DNA of 64,000 nucleotides from Chloroflexia bacterium (GCA_036172265.1 JASFBA010000021.1:4158-68157); one strand, 5' to 3'; numbered from the stretch's first letter, positions 26,512 to 42,135 are shown. Notes: generated by a model not told the origin, from the letters alone. A program made the numbers and translations.

Positions 26512-26582
26512 GGCGACGTAGACAAGTGGCAAGGCAGGGGTCTGCAAAACCCCGATCAGCGGTTCGAATCCGCTCGTCGCCT
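26512..26582 (+). tRNA. tRNA-Cys (anticodon GCA)
   Basis: Manual fold. Acceptor GGCGACG/CGTCGCC, anticodon stem GGGGT/ACCCC with loop CUGCAAA (GCA), T-arm AGCGG-TTCGAAT-CCGCT, discriminator U. 71 nt, no encoded CCA, short D-arm as in other tRNA-Cys. Confidence 0.85.
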
Positions 26583-26654: not shown

Positions 26655-29600
26655 CTATGGGAAGGAGTAGCCCTTGAGCGTCAGCGGCAGGTAGATGACA
26701 TAGGGCCAGATGACCCGGATGGCCTTCCGGACCGTCTGATGGCTGCAGGCGTTCTCCGCCGTCAGGGTCACGGCGTAGGTGTTGGAGATGGTGTAGGTAT
26801 GGGTCACCACCCGGCCGGCCGCCGTCCCCCTGTCGCCAAAGGCCCAGGTGTAGGTGATCGGCTCGCTGCCCTGCTCTACGCTTCCGGTGAAGGTGATGAC
26901 CTGCCACGGATGGGGCTGAGGCGGAGCGTAGGTAAAGTCCGTCCCGCTAATGGGGATGCAGGCAGTGGTTACCACCAGCGTCACCTCCACCCAGACGTGC
27001 GGCTCATCCGGGTCGTTGCTGGTCACATCCAGGGTGGTGGTGTAGGTGCCCGTGACCAGCCCGGTGGCGTCAAAGGCGACCTGCACCGTCTCCTGTCCAG
27101 AGGGCGGGATGACTCCACCGGTGGGCGTCTCGTCCAACCAGGTGACGACGGGCACCTCGGCCAGGCTCCAGTCCAGGATTTCCTCGCCCACGTTGCGGAT
27201 GGTGAGGGTGCGGGTCGTCGTCCCGCCGGGGTTGAGGACGGCGCTCAGCGCCAGGGGAGATACTTCGATGTCGGGGACACCCAGGACCTCGACAGAAGTG
27301 GTGCGGGTGAAGGGGGCGTGGACGCCGTCATCAATCCAGACCAGGTTGGTGAGAACGGTGCCGGTCGGCACATCCAGGACACGGGCTTGGAAGGGCAGCG
27401 AAACCGAGGGCGAAACGCCCCCGCTCCAGAGGAGGAGGCCGTCCGTATAGACCATGCCGGGCGGTAGGGTCTCGGTGAGCACGGTCGTCTGGGTCGGCAC
27501 GACGTCGGTGATGGTGACCCAGGCCTCGATCTCGCCCACGTTGATGAGGCGGATGGTGAAGGTGAGCACCTCGCCGGGATGCACGTAGAAGCGGTCGGCC
27601 TCCTTGAGGGAAGGGGTCAGGTCTGGCTCGGGCGCCGGGCGGGTGGTGAAGGACCAGGTGTACTCGGCGCACATCGGCCAGCCCTCGGCGCTCTGGATGC
27701 CGGTGGTCAGGTGGGCAATGTAGGTAGTCCCATAGGCCAGCGGTGCCGAAGGCGTGAAGATGGCCGTATAGGTGGCCGGGTCGTAGCCTACACTGCCGGA
27801 GACCAGGCCCATCGGTCCCTCCAGGAAGAAGGTGCTCGTGTTCACCGTGGAGGGGTTGAGGGCGATGTTGAAGGTGGCGGTGACCAGGGTGGAGATGGGC
27901 ACGCCTGTCGCACCGTCGGCCGGCCCGACGCTCCGAACGGTGGGGGCGAGGGCGATGTCGGCATCGTAGCGCGGCTCAAGTTTGAAGTTGTTGTAGGTGT
28001 AGAAGAGGACGCCGCGGACGGTGTAGAGGACGTCGCCCAGTCGCGGGACGTAGGTGTACTGCCCCATATCGTCCACGCGGGCCATGACGCCGCTCGCGTC
28101 GGCGATGCCCCACTCGCCATAGCCCAGGTCCGGGTTCACCACCGTGGCGCAGCGCACCTCCACCAGGACGCTCTCCAGCGGCTCGGCCTGCTGGGGGTTG
28201 CCGGTGGTGATGGCGGCGGTGGTGGTGAGCACGGGGAACGGCGGCCACCAGTCCATCAGCACCCGGAAGTAGTCAATGTTGCCCAGTTCGGTCATGCCGT
28301 AGTATTCGGTTACCGTCCCGCCCAGGACCAGGACCTGGCTTTCCGTGACCACCCGGCCGGGGTCGTAGACGAAGAGGCCCTGCCAGGGGCCGTACTCGCC
28401 GAGGCTGCCGAGGACATAGCGCACCGGGTTGCCGGCCGAGGGATAGGCCTGGGAATCGGCTACCACGATGCCTATCACGTAGACGTGCTCCCCTACGTGG
28501 CGCGAAGGCCAGGTGCCGGTCATCACCGAGGGGGCCTGCACTTCCCAGATCGGCATGGGGAGGTCGGTATCCCAGTAGGCATAGTTGTTGTTCGGGTCGG
28601 TGTCGTTGCTGGAGGTGATCCAGACCTGGTTGCGCACCGTCCAGGTCATGGGGTCGGTGCTCACCTGGCCGTAGACGATGAAGGAAGCGGTGGCACTGAC
28701 CGTACCCAGTTCCCAGACCAGGGTGTTGGAAATGATCGTCGGCGTGACCGGAGCCGTGTCGCTTATATAGAGGACGGCAGCCGGGAGGACGTCGGTGATG
28801 ACCACGTTCAGGGCCGGATCGCCCATTTGCTCGTAGGTCAGGGTGTAGGAGATTGGTCCGCCCGGCGTGCTGAAGACCGTTCCGGTTTTGGCGATGCCGA
28901 TTTCGGAACCGACTACCTGGCTGACCAGAATGTCCTGGTTGTTATTCGGGACGGTGTCCCCGGTGCAGGTCACCCCGACGGTGTTGGTCAGGAGGGTGCC
29001 AAAGGGCAGGTCGCCGACCTGGGCCTGGAGCCAGATGGTGTTGCTCATCAGGCCGGAAAGGCTGCCGCCGTCAAAGACCACCGTGGGGGTAACCTGGGTC
29101 AGGGTGATGGGGAGATAGGAAGTGAAGGTGACGAAGGCAACCCCACCGGGCAGGGTATCGGTGATGACGATGTTATAGCCGGGGCCCATGGCCTGCATCG
29201 TGTAGGAGAGGGTGTAGGTGATGAGGGAGTTGGGGGATACAAAGGCCGGCCCGGACTTGTCCACGGCGATGTCCACGGAGCAGTTCGAGCGACCTAGCGT
29301 TTCAGGGAAGTCCATCCAGGTCGTGCCGCCGCCGGAGGTGGCCCAGTCGTAGCCGTCGTGGGGGCCTTCCCCGTCGCAGACGCGCTGGAAGGTATTGTCC
29401 TCATATTCGTTGTACCATCCGATCTGGTCCACCCGGGTACGGTCGGGGAGGAAGAGGTAGCCCACGTCGAGGGAGGAAAAGTCCATGACGATGGTCCAGT
29501 CCACCGTCTCCTCCAGGACGACCCAGCCGCCGGGCGGGACAATGGGGTGGGTAACGATGACGGCTACGGCGTCGCCGTCGGAGAGGTACCACCCATTCAT

Positions 29601-30806
29601 GTCGATCGGGGAGTCGCCGGGGTTGTAAATTTCGACCTTGTCGTTGACGGCCGGCGGGTAGTTATCGAACTCGTTGAGGATGAGGGAGGTGCCCAACGAC
29701 ACCGGAGCGGCATCGTTGGCTGCATCGCGGGTGGATGTATTGTCCAGGTTCCAGTCGCGGGCGTGGTCGTCGGTGTCCCAGCCGTCGGGAGTACGGGCGC
29801 AGGAATAGCCAGTGGGCGGGATGGGCGCGCCGCCACGGATGCCGTAGCCGACCTGATCTACCGGCGCAGGGGCCCATGGGGCGTTCAGGGAGATCACATC
29901 GCCGTCGTTGCTCAAGTAATCGGCGCCGGTGTTGAAGGAATAGTACCCGCCCGGGGGCAGCACGGTCCCGAACGGAACGGTATAGTTCAGCGGTCCTCCT
30001 GCGCCGCCATAGTCCGACACCACGGTCCAGCCGGAGATGTCCACCGCCTGCACCGTGGTATTGTGGAGTTCGATCCATTCCGTTCCCTTGGCCACGAACT
30101 CGTTGATAACCACGGGAGTTATCACGTGAGCCCGGATGCGGGCCCGGCCGGCATCGGCCAGGAAAAGTACCGCTTGGCCGGGGAAGGTTGTGGAGAAGGC
30201 CAGGTTATCGGTGTTGACCGAGCGGCCGCCCTCGTTGCCCTGGGGGCCGATGGCATCCCAGGTGCCGCTGCGGACGGCCTTGTAATAGTGGGTGCCGGCC
30301 GTGGGGATGGTGGTGGCGTAGCCGTAGAGGCCGCCGCCGAGGGGAGTCATCACCGTGCTGGGGTCGGAGGGGTTCCAGCCCTGCCAGTCGCCCACGGCGG
30401 TCCAGGTGGTTACGCCATCTTGGGCGTTGACGATGAGGGTGGAGGGAGACCAGCCGTCGTTGTAGGTGTTGGTGTCAAAGGTGAACTTGACCGGCTGGTT
30501 CGCATCCGCGGTCAGAATCCAGGCGTTGGAAGGCGGGTGGGGGTCGGTCCAGTTGCCGTCGTCCACCTTGAACTCGTAGCGGCCGCCGGTGGTGATGGTG
30601 ATGATGACGGTGTAGATGCCGTCGTTGGCCACGTCGTCGCCGTGGGTGCCGTCGTCGTACATAAGGTCGGTACCCCAGCCGTTGAAATCGCCGCGGACGT
30701 ACCAGGGCGGGCCGGCGGCCAGGGCGCGGGGAGCGGGGCCGGCCGGAAGGAAGAGGCCAGCCAGGAGCGAAAGGAGCAAAACCGAGGGAAACCATAGGCG
30801 TCTCAT
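26655..30806 (-). CDS. Giant secreted multidomain protein (CBM-like N-domain, two lamin-tail-domain repeats, DUF11 repeats, Ig-like domains, C-terminal PKD domain, terminal YVIYLPLTLKG tail)
   Basis: 1383 aa. AGGAGG RBS, signal peptide MRRLWFPSVLLLSLLAGLFLPAGPAPRALA. LTD motifs (VVINEF...EWIELHN, LILNEFDNY...VEIYNP). PKD: ITYTWAFGDRGTAAGRVVTHTYT. Confidence 0.85.
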   Translation of the reverse strand: MRRLWFPSVLLLSLLAGLFLPAGPAPRALAAGPPWYVRGDFNGWGTDLMYDDGTHGDDVANDGIYTVIITITTGGRYEFKVDDGNWTDPHPPSNAWILTADANQPVKFTFDTNTYNDGWSPSTLIVNAQDGVTTWTAVGDWQGWNPSDPSTVMTPLGGGLYGYATTIPTAGTHYYKAVRSGTWDAIGPQGNEGGRSVNTDNLAFSTTFPGQAVLFLADAGRARIRAHVITPVVINEFVAKGTEWIELHNTTVQAVDISGWTVVSDYGGAGGPLNYTVPFGTVLPPGGYYSFNTGADYLSNDGDVISLNAPWAPAPVDQVGYGIRGGAPIPPTGYSCARTPDGWDTDDHARDWNLDNTSTRDAANDAAPVSLGTSLILNEFDNYPPAVNDKVEIYNPGDSPIDMNGWYLSDGDAVAVIVTHPIVPPGGWVVLEETVDWTIVMDFSSLDVGYLFLPDRTRVDQIGWYNEYEDNTFQRVCDGEGPHDGYDWATSGGGTTWMDFPETLGRSNCSVDIAVDKSGPAFVSPNSLITYTLSYTMQAMGPGYNIVITDTLPGGVAFVTFTSYLPITLTQVTPTVVFDGGSLSGLMSNTIWLQAQVGDLPFGTLLTNTVGVTCTGDTVPNNNQDILVSQVVGSEIGIAKTGTVFSTPGGPISYTLTYEQMGDPALNVVITDVLPAAVLYISDTAPVTPTIISNTLVWELGTVSATASFIVYGQVSTDPMTWTVRNQVWITSSNDTDPNNNYAYWDTDLPMPIWEVQAPSVMTGTWPSRHVGEHVYVIGIVVADSQAYPSAGNPVRYVLGSLGEYGPWQGLFVYDPGRVVTESQVLVLGGTVTEYYGMTELGNIDYFRVLMDWWPPFPVLTTTAAITTGNPQQAEPLESVLVEVRCATVVNPDLGYGEWGIADASGVMARVDDMGQYTYVPRLGDVLYTVRGVLFYTYNNFKLEPRYDADIALAPTVRSVGPADGATGVPISTLVTATFNIALNPSTVNTSTFFLEGPMGLVSGSVGYDPATYTAIFTPSAPLAYGTTYIAHLTTGIQSAEGWPMCAEYTWSFTTRPAPEPDLTPSLKEADRFYVHPGEVLTFTIRLINVGEIEAWVTITDVVPTQTTVLTETLPPGMVYTDGLLLWSGGVSPSVSLPFQARVLDVPTGTVLTNLVWIDDGVHAPFTRTTSVEVLGVPDIEVSPLALSAVLNPGGTTTRTLTIRNVGEEILDWSLAEVPVVTWLDETPTGGVIPPSGQETVQVAFDATGLVTGTYTTTLDVTSNDPDEPHVWVEVTLVVTTACIPISGTDFTYAPPQPHPWQVITFTGSVEQGSEPITYTWAFGDRGTAAGRVVTHTYTISNTYAVTLTAENACSHQTVRKAIRVIWPYVIYLPLTLKGYSFP

Positions 30807-38527: not shown

Positions 38528-38617
38528 CCCTCTGGGCCGGCCCTGGAGCAGAAAAAACACCGTACATCTTCCTTTGCCTATCTCGCCCGATGACCCTCCT
38601 ACCCCGAAGGCAGGAGA

Positions 38618-38885
38618 CCGGTGTCCCTCCCCCTGGATGGGGGAGGTCAGGAGGGGGTGAAGGGCCGCCGGCGTCGCTCTTCTCCATCAGGGGAGGGGGA
38701 CAAGGCGGGAACCCGGTGTCCCTCCCCCTGGATGGGGGAGGTCAGGGGGGTGAAGGGCCGCCGACGTCGCTCTTCTCCATCAGAGGAGGGGGACAAGGCG
38801 GGAACCCGGTGTCCCTCCCCCTGGATGGGGGAGGGCAGGGGGGAAGGGCCGCCGGCGTCGCTCTTCTCCATCAGGGGAGGGGGAC
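38618..38885. repeat. Tandem repeat, 2.9 copies of a 93-95 bp unit with internal C-rich/G-rich inverted repeats
   Basis: Copies start at 38618, 38713 and 38806, with >95% identity and a 2-nt indel between copies. Each unit contains CCCTCCCCC-tggat-GGGGGAGG. GGGAGGGGGA of one unit pairs with TCCCTCCCC of the next. Periods of 95 and 93 are not multiples of 3, so it is non-coding. Confidence 0.85.
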
Positions 38886-39164: not shown

Positions 39165-39614
39165 ATGAAGCGCGCACGAACGTTGGGGATCGGAGTTTTT
39201 CTCATCCTGGGGCTGATCGGTCCGATGTCCCCTGTCCAAGGGGCCGAGATCCGATCCCCCCGACCGGCCGGACTGCTCCAGCCGCCAACCGCCGGCTTCC
39301 TTTCCAACAGTCCCATCTGCTTGGGCCAAACGGCCGTCTTCACCGACACGAGCAGCGGGGAGATCTTCTACCACGAATGGGATTTCGGCGATGGGGCCGT
39401 GGGCACAGGCTCCACGCCACGACACGGCTATTTCTGGCCGGGCACCTACACGGTAACCCTCACCGTGGGAGGCCCGGAGGGTAGCGATTCCTATGGCGAC
39501 ACCTTCGAGGTCCTGCCGGCCACCGAGGCCTTCTTCTGGGTCGAACCGTCGGAAGCCATCGTCGGCCGACCAGTGCACTTCCTGAACGTTTCCCAGGGGG
39601 CCACCGGCTACTAG
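39165..39614 (+). CDS. N-terminal fragment (signal peptide + PKD domain) of a secreted PKD/Big/metzincin-like protein, ended by an in-frame TAG
   Basis: Signal peptide MKRARTLGIGVFLILGLIGPMSPVQGA. PKD motif FYHEWDFGDGAVGTGSTPRHGYFWPGTYTVTLTV. A second PKD is cut at ...SQGATGY*. Confidence 0.6.
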   Translation: MKRARTLGIGVFLILGLIGPMSPVQGAEIRSPRPAGLLQPPTAGFLSNSPICLGQTAVFTDTSSGEIFYHEWDFGDGAVGTGSTPRHGYFWPGTYTVTLTVGGPEGSDSYGDTFEVLPATEAFFWVEPSEAIVGRPVHFLNVSQGATGY

Positions 39615-39620
39615 TGGGAC

Positions 39621-41321
39621 ATGGGCGACGGGACGCTGAGCACAGAGATCAGCCCGACCCACACCTACACCGAGGCCGGCGACTATGTCGTGCAACTGAC
39701 CGCCCTAGCCGCTGCCCCCTGCCAGAACTCGGTCTATACGACCACGCTCCACGTCCGCTACCGTACCTTCCTGAGCGTGGCCTACCGGGCGGCGGATCCG
39801 TCCGTCCCCTACCTGGAGGTGGAGACGCTGGCCGTGTCCTCCACCGGTCCGCACCAGGCCGACGGGCAGGATGTGGCCACCATCGTGGTCACGGCCACAG
39901 CAGCCGACGGAAGCCCGGTGCCCGGCCGGAATGTGGCGGTGGAACTGTATGCCGGGGAGGACCTTGGGGGCGCCTACCCGGCCACCGATAACGGCGACGG
40001 CACCTATACCGCCCAGGTCACCTCCACCGTGGCGGCCGACTTCCTGGTCTTGGCCGTCGAGTACGGCTCCCACCAGGTGGCCACCACCACCCTCTCCTTC
40101 CTGCCGGGGACACCCCAGACCATCGCCTGGGTCGAGGTGGTCCGGCCGGCCGACACAATCACTAAGGATACCGCCCTCCTGACGGCCGTGGTGGAGGATG
40201 CCTGGGGCAACCGGGTGCCGACCACGACTGCTCCCATTAGTTTCACCACCGACTTCGGTTCCCTGGTCTCATGGGAGGAGGAAGGCTATTACCACGCCCG
40301 CGTCCAAGCCACCGACTATGGGGTGGCCCATGTCCAGGCCGCCGGTTCGGTCGTTGGGCCCTCCCCGGCAATGACCGAGGCGGCTTTCTTGCCCCTTTAC
40401 CTCGAGTTCCGCACCATGCCGGGCGTGGGCGGGGAACTGGCCGTGGACGTGATCGTCTGGGCCCCCAAGGCCGACCTGGGGATGTACAACCTGGAACTGA
40501 CCTTTGATCCCCACGTCTTACACTTCAAAGGCATGCTGGACGGCGACCCGACCGATCCGTTCCCTGCCCCCTCTTACTCTATCTCTGGCACAAACACGAT
40601 CGTCTTCCACCAAATAAACTCTGGCGGAGAGCCCACCCCAGAGCGCATCCACCTTGCCACCAGCTTCTTCGACGTCTTCGTCGAGGCAGACCTGACCCCC
40701 CTTTCCCTACACCTGCTGAAAGACGATGTCCGCAGCCTGATGGATGTCTACGGCAACCCTCTGCTGCCCCAGGAACTCTACGACCTCCTGCAGCCCCGTT
40801 TGACCTGGTGGCTGCCCTTTTTCCTCAAATGGCCCAAACCGGTCTGCCTCAAGGTCTGGCTGGCGCCGGGAGCCACGCCGAACCTGGCCGGCCACACTTT
40901 GACGTTGAACGATATCTATTGGCGGAACGTGCCCCGATGCTGCCCCTGGTTCCTTTTCTTCCCGGTTACCAACACCATCAGACCCGTGGACTGGAATAAG
41001 ATCAACCAGGGTCCTCCGCAGTTGGATAGATCGGAGCGGGATGCCCTACGTGCCCGCTACAATCGTGCCCGCTGCATCAACGTCATTTATGCCCCGGACA
41101 ACTCTTTAGGAGGCACCGGCGTCACGATCCCAGGCGACGGCATCATCATAGACGGCGATGCGCTCGCCAACACCCTGGCCCACGAGGTCGGGCACTACTA
41201 CGGGCTGCGGGACCGATATGCAGCCGGGGCTGCAATTAACCTGATGTACGGATACGGCAACCCGGGCAAGTGGATCTTGACGCCGGCCCAGTGCGCCGTC
41301 ATCACCGCGAACGACCCATAG
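39621..41321 (+). CDS. C-terminal continuation of the same gene: PKD remainder, Big-like Ig domains, cohesin-like domain, and a C-terminal metzincin-like HEVGHYYGLRD zinc-peptidase domain
   Basis: Same frame as 39165..39614. The PKD motif continues across the TAG (ATGY*WDMGDGTLS...HTYTEAGDYVVQLTA). HExxHxxGxxD plus a Met-turn-like LMYGY near the C-terminus. Confidence 0.6.
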   Translation: MGDGTLSTEISPTHTYTEAGDYVVQLTALAAAPCQNSVYTTTLHVRYRTFLSVAYRAADPSVPYLEVETLAVSSTGPHQADGQDVATIVVTATAADGSPVPGRNVAVELYAGEDLGGAYPATDNGDGTYTAQVTSTVAADFLVLAVEYGSHQVATTTLSFLPGTPQTIAWVEVVRPADTITKDTALLTAVVEDAWGNRVPTTTAPISFTTDFGSLVSWEEEGYYHARVQATDYGVAHVQAAGSVVGPSPAMTEAAFLPLYLEFRTMPGVGGELAVDVIVWAPKADLGMYNLELTFDPHVLHFKGMLDGDPTDPFPAPSYSISGTNTIVFHQINSGGEPTPERIHLATSFFDVFVEADLTPLSLHLLKDDVRSLMDVYGNPLLPQELYDLLQPRLTWWLPFFLKWPKPVCLKVWLAPGATPNLAGHTLTLNDIYWRNVPRCCPWFLFFPVTNTIRPVDWNKINQGPPQLDRSERDALRARYNRARCINVIYAPDNSLGGTGVTIPGDGIIIDGDALANTLAHEVGHYYGLRDRYAAGAAINLMYGYGNPGKWILTPAQCAVITANDP

Positions 41322-41688
41322 GTTAGGCGTCGCTGGCAAGCCGGCGAAGCGGTTCGCCCTATCCGAAAGTGCCGGGCGGAGGAAACCTCGCCTCGTTCCC
41401 TCTACCGGGGACGGGGAGAAGGAGACCGGACACCGGCAAAATTACCTTATGTTGCACTTGATAAGCGTTCGTCCTTCCACCAAGAGGCCATTTTATCGGC
41501 GATTCCCCCACCGGGGGGCCGTGAGTCAGGACAGCGATGGCGTTTTTGCCCCACCAGGCGAAATTTGCCAGAATCGGCGAGTAAGTAGGCGAAGGCACTG
41601 CCCTCGCCTACCCGGCGGCCGGTAGACGCGGCCGTCCATCCTCATTATAATTGCCTACGGCTGCGGGCAGGACACTGCCTCGGCCCGG

Positions 41689-42015
41689 GTGGAGGTATAT
41701 CCGCCGGCGGTATGTGAACCGGTGGACATCCTTACTTACACGGCCCAGATTTCCGGCTGTATCGCCACCTTTGAGGCGGTGCTGGCCGGCACCGCGCCGT
41801 TCGAGTACCTCTGGAATTTCGGCACCTTCGGCGCCTACACCACAGTGAACCCTGTGGTGAACTTCCAGGCAACGGGCACTTACACCGGGACGCTTTGGGC
41901 ATGGAACTGCACCGGGCAGTACTCGGACACGATGGCACTGGAGGTGCGCGTGGAGTGCGCCCCACCGGTGCACCACTACATCATCTACCTGCCGCTGGTG
42001 CTGCGGAACGGCTAG
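41689..42015 (+). CDS. Small PKD-module protein, paralog of the C-terminus of the 1383-aa protein (ends HHYIIYLPLVLRNG)
   Basis: FEYLWNFGTFGAYTTVNPVVNFQATGTYTGTLWAWNCTG PKD-like. GTG start as per ORF track. The upstream in-frame stretch (TRPSILIIIAYGCGQDTASA) has no canonical start codon. Confidence 0.45.
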   Translation: MEVYPPAVCEPVDILTYTAQISGCIATFEAVLAGTAPFEYLWNFGTFGAYTTVNPVVNFQATGTYTGTLWAWNCTGQYSDTMALEVRVECAPPVHHYIIYLPLVLRNG

Positions 42016-42135
42016 CCAGTCTCTGACAACCGGCTCGTAGCACAGGCTTTGGGGACTGGACAAAATAACCGGATAAAACAGAACGCTCCTGCCGATCCCG
42101 CCTGGACATGGAACGTCCGGCGAGACCTGGAAGGC

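Follow-up and report, generated by a model that had tools for sequence, protein, structure and literature searches.

Two open reading frames with the same C-terminal tail

The window analysed in this study, a stretch of 64,000 nucleotides from a Chloroflexia bacterium (GCA_036172265.1, JASFBA010000021.1:4158-68157), contains housekeeping genes for PdxS, a tRNA, trigger factor, ClpP, ClpX, SMC, a patatin, CofD and GlmS as neighbours of the genes described here. When a relaxed peptide pattern was applied to all six frames of the window, three matches were obtained, two of which are the C-termini of a giant protein and of a small ORF. The first-pass annotation had drawn attention to a tail shared by these two proteins directly after a PKD domain, and this was confirmed by their translations, by BLASTP and by Pfam.

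The giant protein is encoded by an intact ORF of 1383 aa on the minus strand (26655..30806); on translation, this strand reads as coding and the plus frame gives nonsense. The protein is exported and multi-domain. Its Sec-type signal peptide (30717..30806, minus strand) was read from the translation, with MRRLWFPSVLLLSLLAGLFLPAGPAPRALA before the inferred cleavage site and AG after it. According to Pfam and NCBIfam it contains a choice-of-anchor X domain, a pullulanase-X25-like domain, two lamin-tail domains, DUF11 repeats, a Big_5 domain, a HYDIN-like Ig domain and a PKD domain, followed by the tail. The C-terminal PKD domain (residues 1302-1363; 26718..26903, minus strand) was recognised with E-values of 5.9e-12 (PF18911) and 2.5e-10 (PF00801), and its 45.9 bits lie well above the Pfam threshold of 27 bits. 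The tail itself (26658..26705, minus strand) reads PYVIYLPLTLK, then GYSFP and the stop codon, so that the protein ends in ...PYVIYLPLTLKGYSFP (in a longer form ...AIRVIWPYVIYLPLTLKGYSFP), with ...IRVIWPYVIYLPLTLKGYSFP as the residues next to the stop.

An ortholog of the giant protein with 77% identity across the last 219 aa is encoded by another ‘Chloroflexia bacterium’ MAG (GCA_049971335.1), where the gene is split by a scaffold gap only. The tail was kept as IYLPLTLKGYTFP, and this sequence is present in the orthologs P0006 and P0089. A CarboxypepD_reg gene that adjoins the ortholog on the GCA_049971335.1 contig encodes a protein with the C-terminus YRVYLPLVLRGTAGR. Directly beyond the 3' end of the giant gene in the window lies a tRNA gene (26512-26582, plus strand; 57.2 bits), which is the sole Rfam match within the window.

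The small ORF (41689..42015, plus strand) has a GTG start and specifies 108 aa, comprising one PKD-like domain and the tail but no signal peptide. The first-pass annotation had stated that this ORF lacks a canonical start, which is not the case: the GTG is present and the NCBI pipeline calls the 108-aa protein from it (P0001). The PKD-like domain (41764..41949, plus strand) scores 24.8 bits with PKD_4 (cut-off 27 bits) and 18.4 bits with PKD, both sub-threshold in Pfam, yet it aligns with PKD homologs and was modelled by AlphaFold2, from an alignment of 29 sequences, as a beta-sandwich with pLDDT values above 90. The tail (41974..42012, plus strand) reads HYIIYLPLVLR, then NG and the stop codon; the C-terminus is ...HYIIYLPLVLRNG, also given as ...VECAPPVHHYIIYLPLVLRNG. 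In the model, residues 107-126 form a coil outside the PKD sandwich with pLDDT values of 68-77, which is compatible with a free linear motif that is not part of the PKD fold.

Upstream of the small ORF, an in-frame TAG is found at 41623..41625 (plus strand). The first-pass annotation had assigned the ORF its own TATAAT, and this hexamer is indeed present at 41646-41651, together with a -35-like partner (TAGACG-17 nt-TATAAT, 41623..41651, plus strand; 10 of 12 positions of the sigma-70 consensus), but it represents a consensus match only. No Shine-Dalgarno-like sequence was seen ahead of the GTG when the sequence was read. The non-coding DNA just upstream of this TAG contains a palindrome at 41585-41611, with the sequence GTAGGCGA-(11 nt)-TCGCCTAC.

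The small ORF as a probable remnant of a C25 peptidase gene

As the first-pass annotation had proposed, the two window proteins align over about 100 aa. The alignment of the small ORF with residues 1293-1378 of the giant protein spans the PKD domain and the tail over 104 aa, with 29% identity and an E-value of 4e-6. Judging from this alignment, the PKD domains are old and divergent relatives whereas the tails are nearly identical. The identity of only 29% between the PKD domains speaks against a recent duplication. The additional proposal that the small gene is a standalone paralog of the C-terminal module of the giant protein did not hold, since the small ORF is much closer to other proteins, with 69% identity to a protein encoded by two metagenome contigs (L120 and L121) and 52% to P0003.

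The similarity to L120/L121 extends to the DNA level, with 80% identity over 299 nt. The homologous part is the last PKD domain and the tail (...FIYLPLVLRNAQP) of a 1494-aa ORF, which comprises a signal peptide, a Propeptide_C25 domain, a Peptidase_C25 domain and four PKD domains. In a tblastn search with the L120 protein, its residues 1369-1494 matched the window at 41635-42018 with 61% identity. The homology thus begins 54 nt upstream of the GTG of the small ORF and ends near the in-frame TAG at 41623-41625; upstream of this TAG, no match to the L120 protein was found by tblastn in any frame. Specifically, tblastn and alignment match the in-frame stretch ahead of the GTG (41635..41688, plus strand; SILIIIAYGCGQDTASAR) with the beta-strands at the end of the PKD domain before it, and the remnant therefore extends 5' to approximately position 41635. 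In the first-pass annotation part of this stretch, ILIIIAYGCGQDTASA (SILIIIAYGCGQDTASARVEV), had been taken for the h-region of a signal peptide; in fact it aligns with the PKD strands that read TVTLTVEGACGSAVTRTAVAV in L120. There is no synteny between L120 and the window, and L120 is the closest relative found rather than a proven ortholog.

By these homologies the small ORF is what is left at the 3' end of a C25 (gingipain-like) peptidase gene whose product had four PKD domains, in other words a predicted pseudogene fragment of which the upstream part, including the signal peptide, has been lost. This agrees with the alternative of a gene remnant that the first-pass annotation had offered alongside its main reading. 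The absence of a signal peptide fits the remnant status and, because the signal peptide and everything upstream have been lost, the remnant's tail is almost certainly non-functional. An ORF in the same frame (41449..41625) was considered as the lost N-terminus and rejected, as it is Arg-rich and shows no homology.

The 108-aa ORF could instead be functional by itself, as a stand-alone gene or cassette with a promoter of its own from which it is expressed. Its GTG start, the call by the NCBI pipeline and the promoter-like site with 10 of 12 matches would allow such expression, and the ORF with its upstream region (from position 41545 onward) is 99.76% identical in an independent assembly, SRR24425660. 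However, this last identity only shows that the same population was sampled. Moreover, the small ORF lacks a signal peptide whereas every intact relative is exported, the homology to a preceding PKD domain extends 5' beyond the GTG as far as the vicinity of an in-frame stop codon, the closest relative found is the C-terminus of a 1494-aa protein, and the GTG is not preceded by a Shine-Dalgarno-like sequence. Lastly, an in-frame stop codon in the adjoining gene suggests local gene decay. Altogether, we consider a functional stand-alone gene improbable.

This adjoining gene (39165-41321, plus strand) encodes an exported protein with a signal peptide, two PKD domains, Big_1/invasin-like domains and a metalloprotease-like end with the sequence HEVGH. 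Its in-frame TAG (39612-39614) lies inside the PKD signature ‘GY*WDMGDG’. Recoding of TAG was considered, as two in-frame TAGs occur 2 kb apart, and was rejected: of the normal stop codons in the window, TAG is used most often (12 of 24), among others by both genes concerned. We therefore regard the TAG at 39612-39614 as a nonsense mutation or a sequencing error, and the stretch around the remnant and the gene 39165..41321 seems to be decaying. After the second PKD domain of this gene, the sequence ‘RYRTFLSVAYR’ (39756-39788, plus strand) occupies a slot in which the tail motif described below could be expected and shows a similar pattern. It was rejected as an instance of the motif, being without the invariant Pro and without an NCBIfam match, and it may be a degenerate internal copy or a coincidence. 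Between smc and the PKD/metalloprotease gene, the intergenic DNA contains a 93-bp unit repeated 3.0 times with 93% matches (38607-38885).

Identity of the tail

To the first-pass annotation the tail had matched no signal that could be named. It does differ from the LPXTG, PEP-CTERM and GlyGly-CTERM signals, but it has a name in NCBIfam. When isolated tails were compared with NCBIfam at a permissive E-value, two models were matched. These are NF050076.1 (sort_motif_YLP), with 11 positions and a cut-off of 15 bits, and NF053834.1 (ultrashort_CTERM), with 10 positions and a cut-off of 10 bits; each of them is described as ‘YLP-box putative sorting motif-containing protein’. The ‘sorting’ role in this description is putative and originates from the NCBI curators. 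Pfam holds no model for the motif, and literature searches on the peptide, the YLP-box and Chloroflexota sorting found no paper or experiment on it.

The window tails share with the YLP-box families the Y-L-P-L-V-L-R core, the location at the very C-terminal end of exported proteins and the phylum, but neither of them reaches the curated score. Canonical YLP tails score 15-18.6 bits. The IIYLPLVLRNG tail of the small ORF remains below the cut-off, with 12.0 bits (28-aa query) or 12.6 bits (20-aa query) on NF050076 and no reported match to NF053834, and the giant tail (IRVIWPYVIYLPLTLKGYSFP; IYLPLTLKGYSFP) has no NCBIfam YLP match at E-values of up to 10. Close relatives of both proteins do pass. 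The tail of the C25 protein of L120 (FIYLPLVLRNAQP) scores 15.0 bits on NF053834 (cut-off 10), and the tail of P0008, a homolog of the giant protein (IYLPLVLKGYTFP; PYTIYLPLVLKGYTFP), passes both models with 16.9 and 15.7 bits. The giant tail has a T for V, a K for R and a 5-residue extension, of which the extension was kept in the ortholog. Since an independently found IYLPLTLRNR tail (L025) is also without an NCBIfam match, the T variant falls outside the curated models.

Both window tails nevertheless have the core hydrophobic-[Y/F]-L-P-[L/V]-x-hydrophobic-[R/K] within approximately 6 residues of the C-terminus (IYLPLVLR plus NG, and IYLPLTLK plus GYSFP), and both lie within the variation of independently found tails. 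The closest homologs of the window proteins are encoded by ‘Chloroflexia bacterium’ MAGs (P0002, P0006-P0008 and P0089). As to export, the translations show a clear signal peptide in the giant protein and none in the small ORF. On the basis of its sequence, the giant protein is thus viewed as an intact YLP-box cargo protein, in which a signal peptide precedes adhesin- or enzyme-like domains and the chain ends with the PKD domain and a T/K variant of the tail. We consider it likely, taking both parts together, that the two window tails are slightly diverged Chloroflexota YLP-boxes that are missed by the curated models and that the small ORF is a remnant, even though neither tail attains the curated score and the GTG start, the promoter-like site and the 99.8% conservation in a second sample would leave room for expression of the ORF.

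Distribution of the YLP-box in Chloroflexota

With the small ORF alone as query, a set of 5.8 billion proteins yielded one non-self homolog, a partial ‘Chloroflexia bacterium’ protein with the C-terminus FYLYLPLVLNGFDL. The gene next to it on the same contig encodes an M14 peptidase with four PKD domains and the C-terminus YRIYLPLLFKVVEN. When four PKD-plus-tail modules were combined into a profile for a wider protein search, 87 proteins were obtained; approximately 40 of them end with [IVLF][YF]LPL[VLT][LMF][RKN] plus 0-5 residues. Tails that contain no basic residue also exist among the PKD-plus-tail relatives, such as YLPLVLNGFDL and YLPLVLNNH. One locus from the searches (L122) was set aside as an unrelated PKD protein without a tail.

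For a search independent of the PKD domain, a DNA pattern for [IVLFM]YLPLVL[R/S] was scanned against one genome per species. This gave at least 117 loci, and 76 of those listed are labelled Chloroflexota, with labels that include Anaerolineae, Thermoflexia/Thermoflexales, Chloroflexia, Ardenticatenaceae, Herpetosiphonaceae and Roseiflexus. Since Chloroflexota make up only a few percent of the GTDB species, their share among the listed loci is a strong enrichment. Among the Chloroflexota matches listed, 64 of 81 are located in long ORFs with a stop codon no more than 6 residues after the R or S of the pattern, and 13 of these 64 C-terminal tails (about one fifth) end exactly at R. The 41 matches listed for other phyla are mostly out-of-frame noise or membrane proteins, and no more than 2 of them lie at the C-terminus of a long ORF, both in doubtful bins. 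Sec-type signal peptides were found in approximately 34 of the 40 5'-complete tail ORFs at the listed loci. The tail is therefore not confined to the two window proteins, and the view that it sits in the slot of a sorting or anchoring signal on secreted proteins is supported by its recurrence across Chloroflexota on unrelated domain families.

Genes adjoining the hits, which had not been selected by the pattern, encode variant tails such as VYLPLVVRNGP, IYLPLTLRNR, VFLPLVIK, VYLPLVVKG and LFLPLILR; 16 such tails were observed in neighbouring genes, whereas the frequency of the core at internal positions would predict about 1.6. These observations bear on the possibility that the tail shared by the two window proteins results from a within-genome duplication of a PKD-plus-tail module, or from chance, and has no general meaning. 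The PKD domain directly before the tail in both proteins, the roughly 100 alignable residues and a stretch of 17 identical nucleotides common to the two tails, which corresponds to the shared residues I-Y-L-P-L, could be explained in this way. However, the PKD domains are too divergent for this (29% identity), the small ORF is much closer to L120 and P0003 than to the giant protein, the same tail terminates dozens of unrelated proteins in many Chloroflexota genomes, and the 17 nucleotides would most simply reflect common codon choice in a genome with a GC content of 65%. To duplication or chance we accordingly give hardly any credence, as it is refuted by the Chloroflexota-wide recurrence and the tails of neighbouring genes.

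The domains in the last 650 residues of 63 tail proteins were choice-of-anchor Q (15 proteins), DUF11 (8), beta-helix (6), DUF7507 (5), Peptidase_C25 (4), CarboxypepD_reg (4), PKD (3) and choice-of-anchor T (3), X (2) and D (2). The domains that precede the YLP-box are mutually unrelated, and the PKD domain (PF00801/PF18911), although it directly precedes the tail in both window proteins, is one of many and not part of the signal. It is very improbable, in our view, that the tail belongs structurally to the PKD fold, for example as an extra edge strand or a cap, and is no separate signal. The tail does follow the last PKD strand after only 5-10 residues in many proteins, but the box is also found after beta-helix/choice-of-anchor Q, DUF11, C25 and CarboxypepD_reg domains and in small ‘GGFW’ proteins (see below), it occurs alone inside PT-rich linkers, and the AlphaFold2 model of the small ORF leaves residues 107-126 as a coil outside the sandwich.

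About 20% of the listed Chloroflexota matches are internal or near the N-terminus, which is at odds with a strictly C-terminal signal. In four cases (L024, L102, L011 and L096) the box lies 50-120 residues after the signal peptide, ahead of the main body of the protein, and in six others (L016, L025, L077, L087, L095 and L114) it is located at a domain border and followed by PT-rich linkers and further domains. In the minus-strand ORF of L087, which encodes a protein of more than 2600 aa, MVYLPLILKN and LYLPLVLRD lie 40 residues apart in one PT-rich linker, near residue 2461. This protein shows that the YLP-box can be internal and tandem.

Two features of the genomic organization should be mentioned. 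Firstly, a family of small secreted proteins with a signal peptide, ‘GGYxLxGGFWxG’ repeats and a YLP tail, of roughly 60-110 aa in the mature form, is encoded at L032, L049, L050, L065 and L116, and also at L073; in five loci these genes adjoin genes for large Gly-rich repeat proteins, which represents a conserved pair. Secondly, YLP-tail genes often lie side by side (L009, L074, L099 and L123), in runs of as many as three or four tail-bearing ORFs, which points to clusters of cargo genes.

Comparison with known sorting systems

The tripartite signals LPXTG/sortase, PEP-CTERM/exosortase, GlyGly-CTERM/rhombosortase and PGF-CTERM/archaeosortase share several properties with the YLP-box. Like the YLP-box, they are short C-terminal signatures on surface proteins with signal peptides, they are lineage-restricted, they occur many times per genome and they are appended to choice-of-anchor and other adhesin-like domains. 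However, the YLP-box is not followed by a transmembrane helix of about 20 aa or by a basic cluster; only 0-6 residues follow, namely two after the basic residue in the small ORF and five in the giant protein. Because neither a transmembrane helix nor a basic cluster is present, the YLP-box cannot work in the manner of LPXTG, PEP-CTERM, GlyGly-CTERM or PGF-CTERM. A further difference is the occurrence of the YLP-box near N-termini and in linkers. We know of no sortase-like partner for it.

The type IX secretion system (T9SS), a system of the Bacteroidota, offers a second comparison. YLP cargo includes C25 peptidases that bear the tag, just as the C25-family protein PorU bears the T9SS C-terminal domain, and the YLP tag follows Ig-like or PKD domains in a similar manner. 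In contrast, the T9SS C-terminal domain is folded and has about 80 aa, whereas the YLP-box has about 10 residues. Pfam and NCBIfam reported no T9SS C-terminal domain families in the window proteins, in which the last folded domain is PKD.

Possible roles of the YLP-box

As a linear motif, the YLP-box is ultrashort and directly follows the last folded domain of multi-domain surface proteins that are exported by Sec; its consensus is (aromatic/basic)-hydrophobic-[Y/F]-L-P-[L/V]-x-hydrophobic-[R/K], then 0-6 residues and the stop. After export by Sec, the exposed and unstructured tail may be read by a putative Chloroflexota-specific factor that would retain or process the tail-bearing protein at the cell surface. 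Choice-of-anchor domains owe their NCBIfam name to the fact that the anchors appended to them differ between lineages, and since the box follows such domains a sorting or retention role is supported, by analogy only. We regard the chances for and against such a function as about even.

As to the mode of recognition, so short a motif cannot span a membrane, about one fifth of the tails end at Arg and would offer no leaving group, and the box also occurs near N-termini and in linkers. For these reasons, a peptide that serves for recognition or docking and tolerates different positions, or a tag that is removed upstream of the box, would be favoured over a sortase-type transpeptidation after the basic residue. 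Likewise, cleavage or transpeptidation right after the basic residue is probably not general, because 13 of the 64 listed tails end at R, some tails have no basic residue and the motif is position-tolerant.

A partner enzyme or receptor was sought among the window neighbours, which include no candidate. Apart from cargo families and one family-specific operon, an all-against-all clustering of the ORFs from 79 tail loci gave no result: neither a recurrent non-cargo family nor a candidate sortase was found. C25 peptidases account for 4 of the 63 YLP cargo proteins (L005, L120/L121 and others); their best NCBIfam match is the T9SS sortase PorU, with 155.6 bits versus a cut-off of 420, and one YLP cargo protein matches PorZ. 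These C25 peptidases are possible candidates for processing enzymes.

This raises the question whether the YLP-box could be a covalent sorting signal, with a dedicated endopeptidase or transpeptidase that cuts in or next to the box and attaches the protein to an envelope polymer. The enzyme would perhaps be found among the box-carrying PorU-like C25 peptidases, which would then be functionally like a sortase or the T9SS PorU. Indeed, the box occupies the slot of LPXTG, PEP-CTERM or T9SS C-terminal domains, after choice-of-anchor Q, T, X and D domains, it usually ends with R or K, the P1 residues preferred by gingipain-type C25 enzymes, and the gene from which the window remnant derives encodes a C25 protein of this kind, a type represented four times among the 63 cargo proteins next to the single PorZ-like match. 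On the other hand, the PorU matches are far below the cut-off and show shared C25 ancestry only, the 13 listed tails that end at R have no bond left to cleave after this residue, and some tails lack R or K altogether. Moreover, no segment for membrane retention holds the substrate near a membrane enzyme, and no co-localised enzyme gene was found in the window or at the 79 loci. We therefore consider a covalent signal unlikely, and position-tolerant docking, or removal of the tag upstream of the box, would remain the favoured mode.

The motif had already been modelled by the NCBI curators, and the window adds instances of it rather than a discovery. The present analysis adds that conserved variants such as IYLPLTLKGY(S/T)FP escape the curated models, that tails ending with Arg and boxes in linkers or near N-termini constrain the possible mechanisms, and that C25 (PorU-like) peptidases are recurrent YLP-box cargo. 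For the annotation of the window, the 108-aa ‘gene’ is better treated as a pseudogene fragment.

With roughly 10 residues at the end of dozens of adhesin-like proteins, proteases and glycan-binding proteins per genome, the tag provides a concrete handle on the attachment of proteins to the atypical envelope of filamentous Chloroflexota. It is conceivable, though in our opinion rather doubtful, that the YLP-box belongs to a sorting system private to the Chloroflexota that does without a membrane-spanning segment. Once the protein has been exported by Sec, its tag of about 10 residues would be recognised by a factor dedicated to it, perhaps the box-carrying PorU-like C25 peptidases, and this factor would retain the cargo at the envelope or attach it covalently. 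If true, this private system would represent a new class of ‘ultrashort’ surface-anchoring signals.
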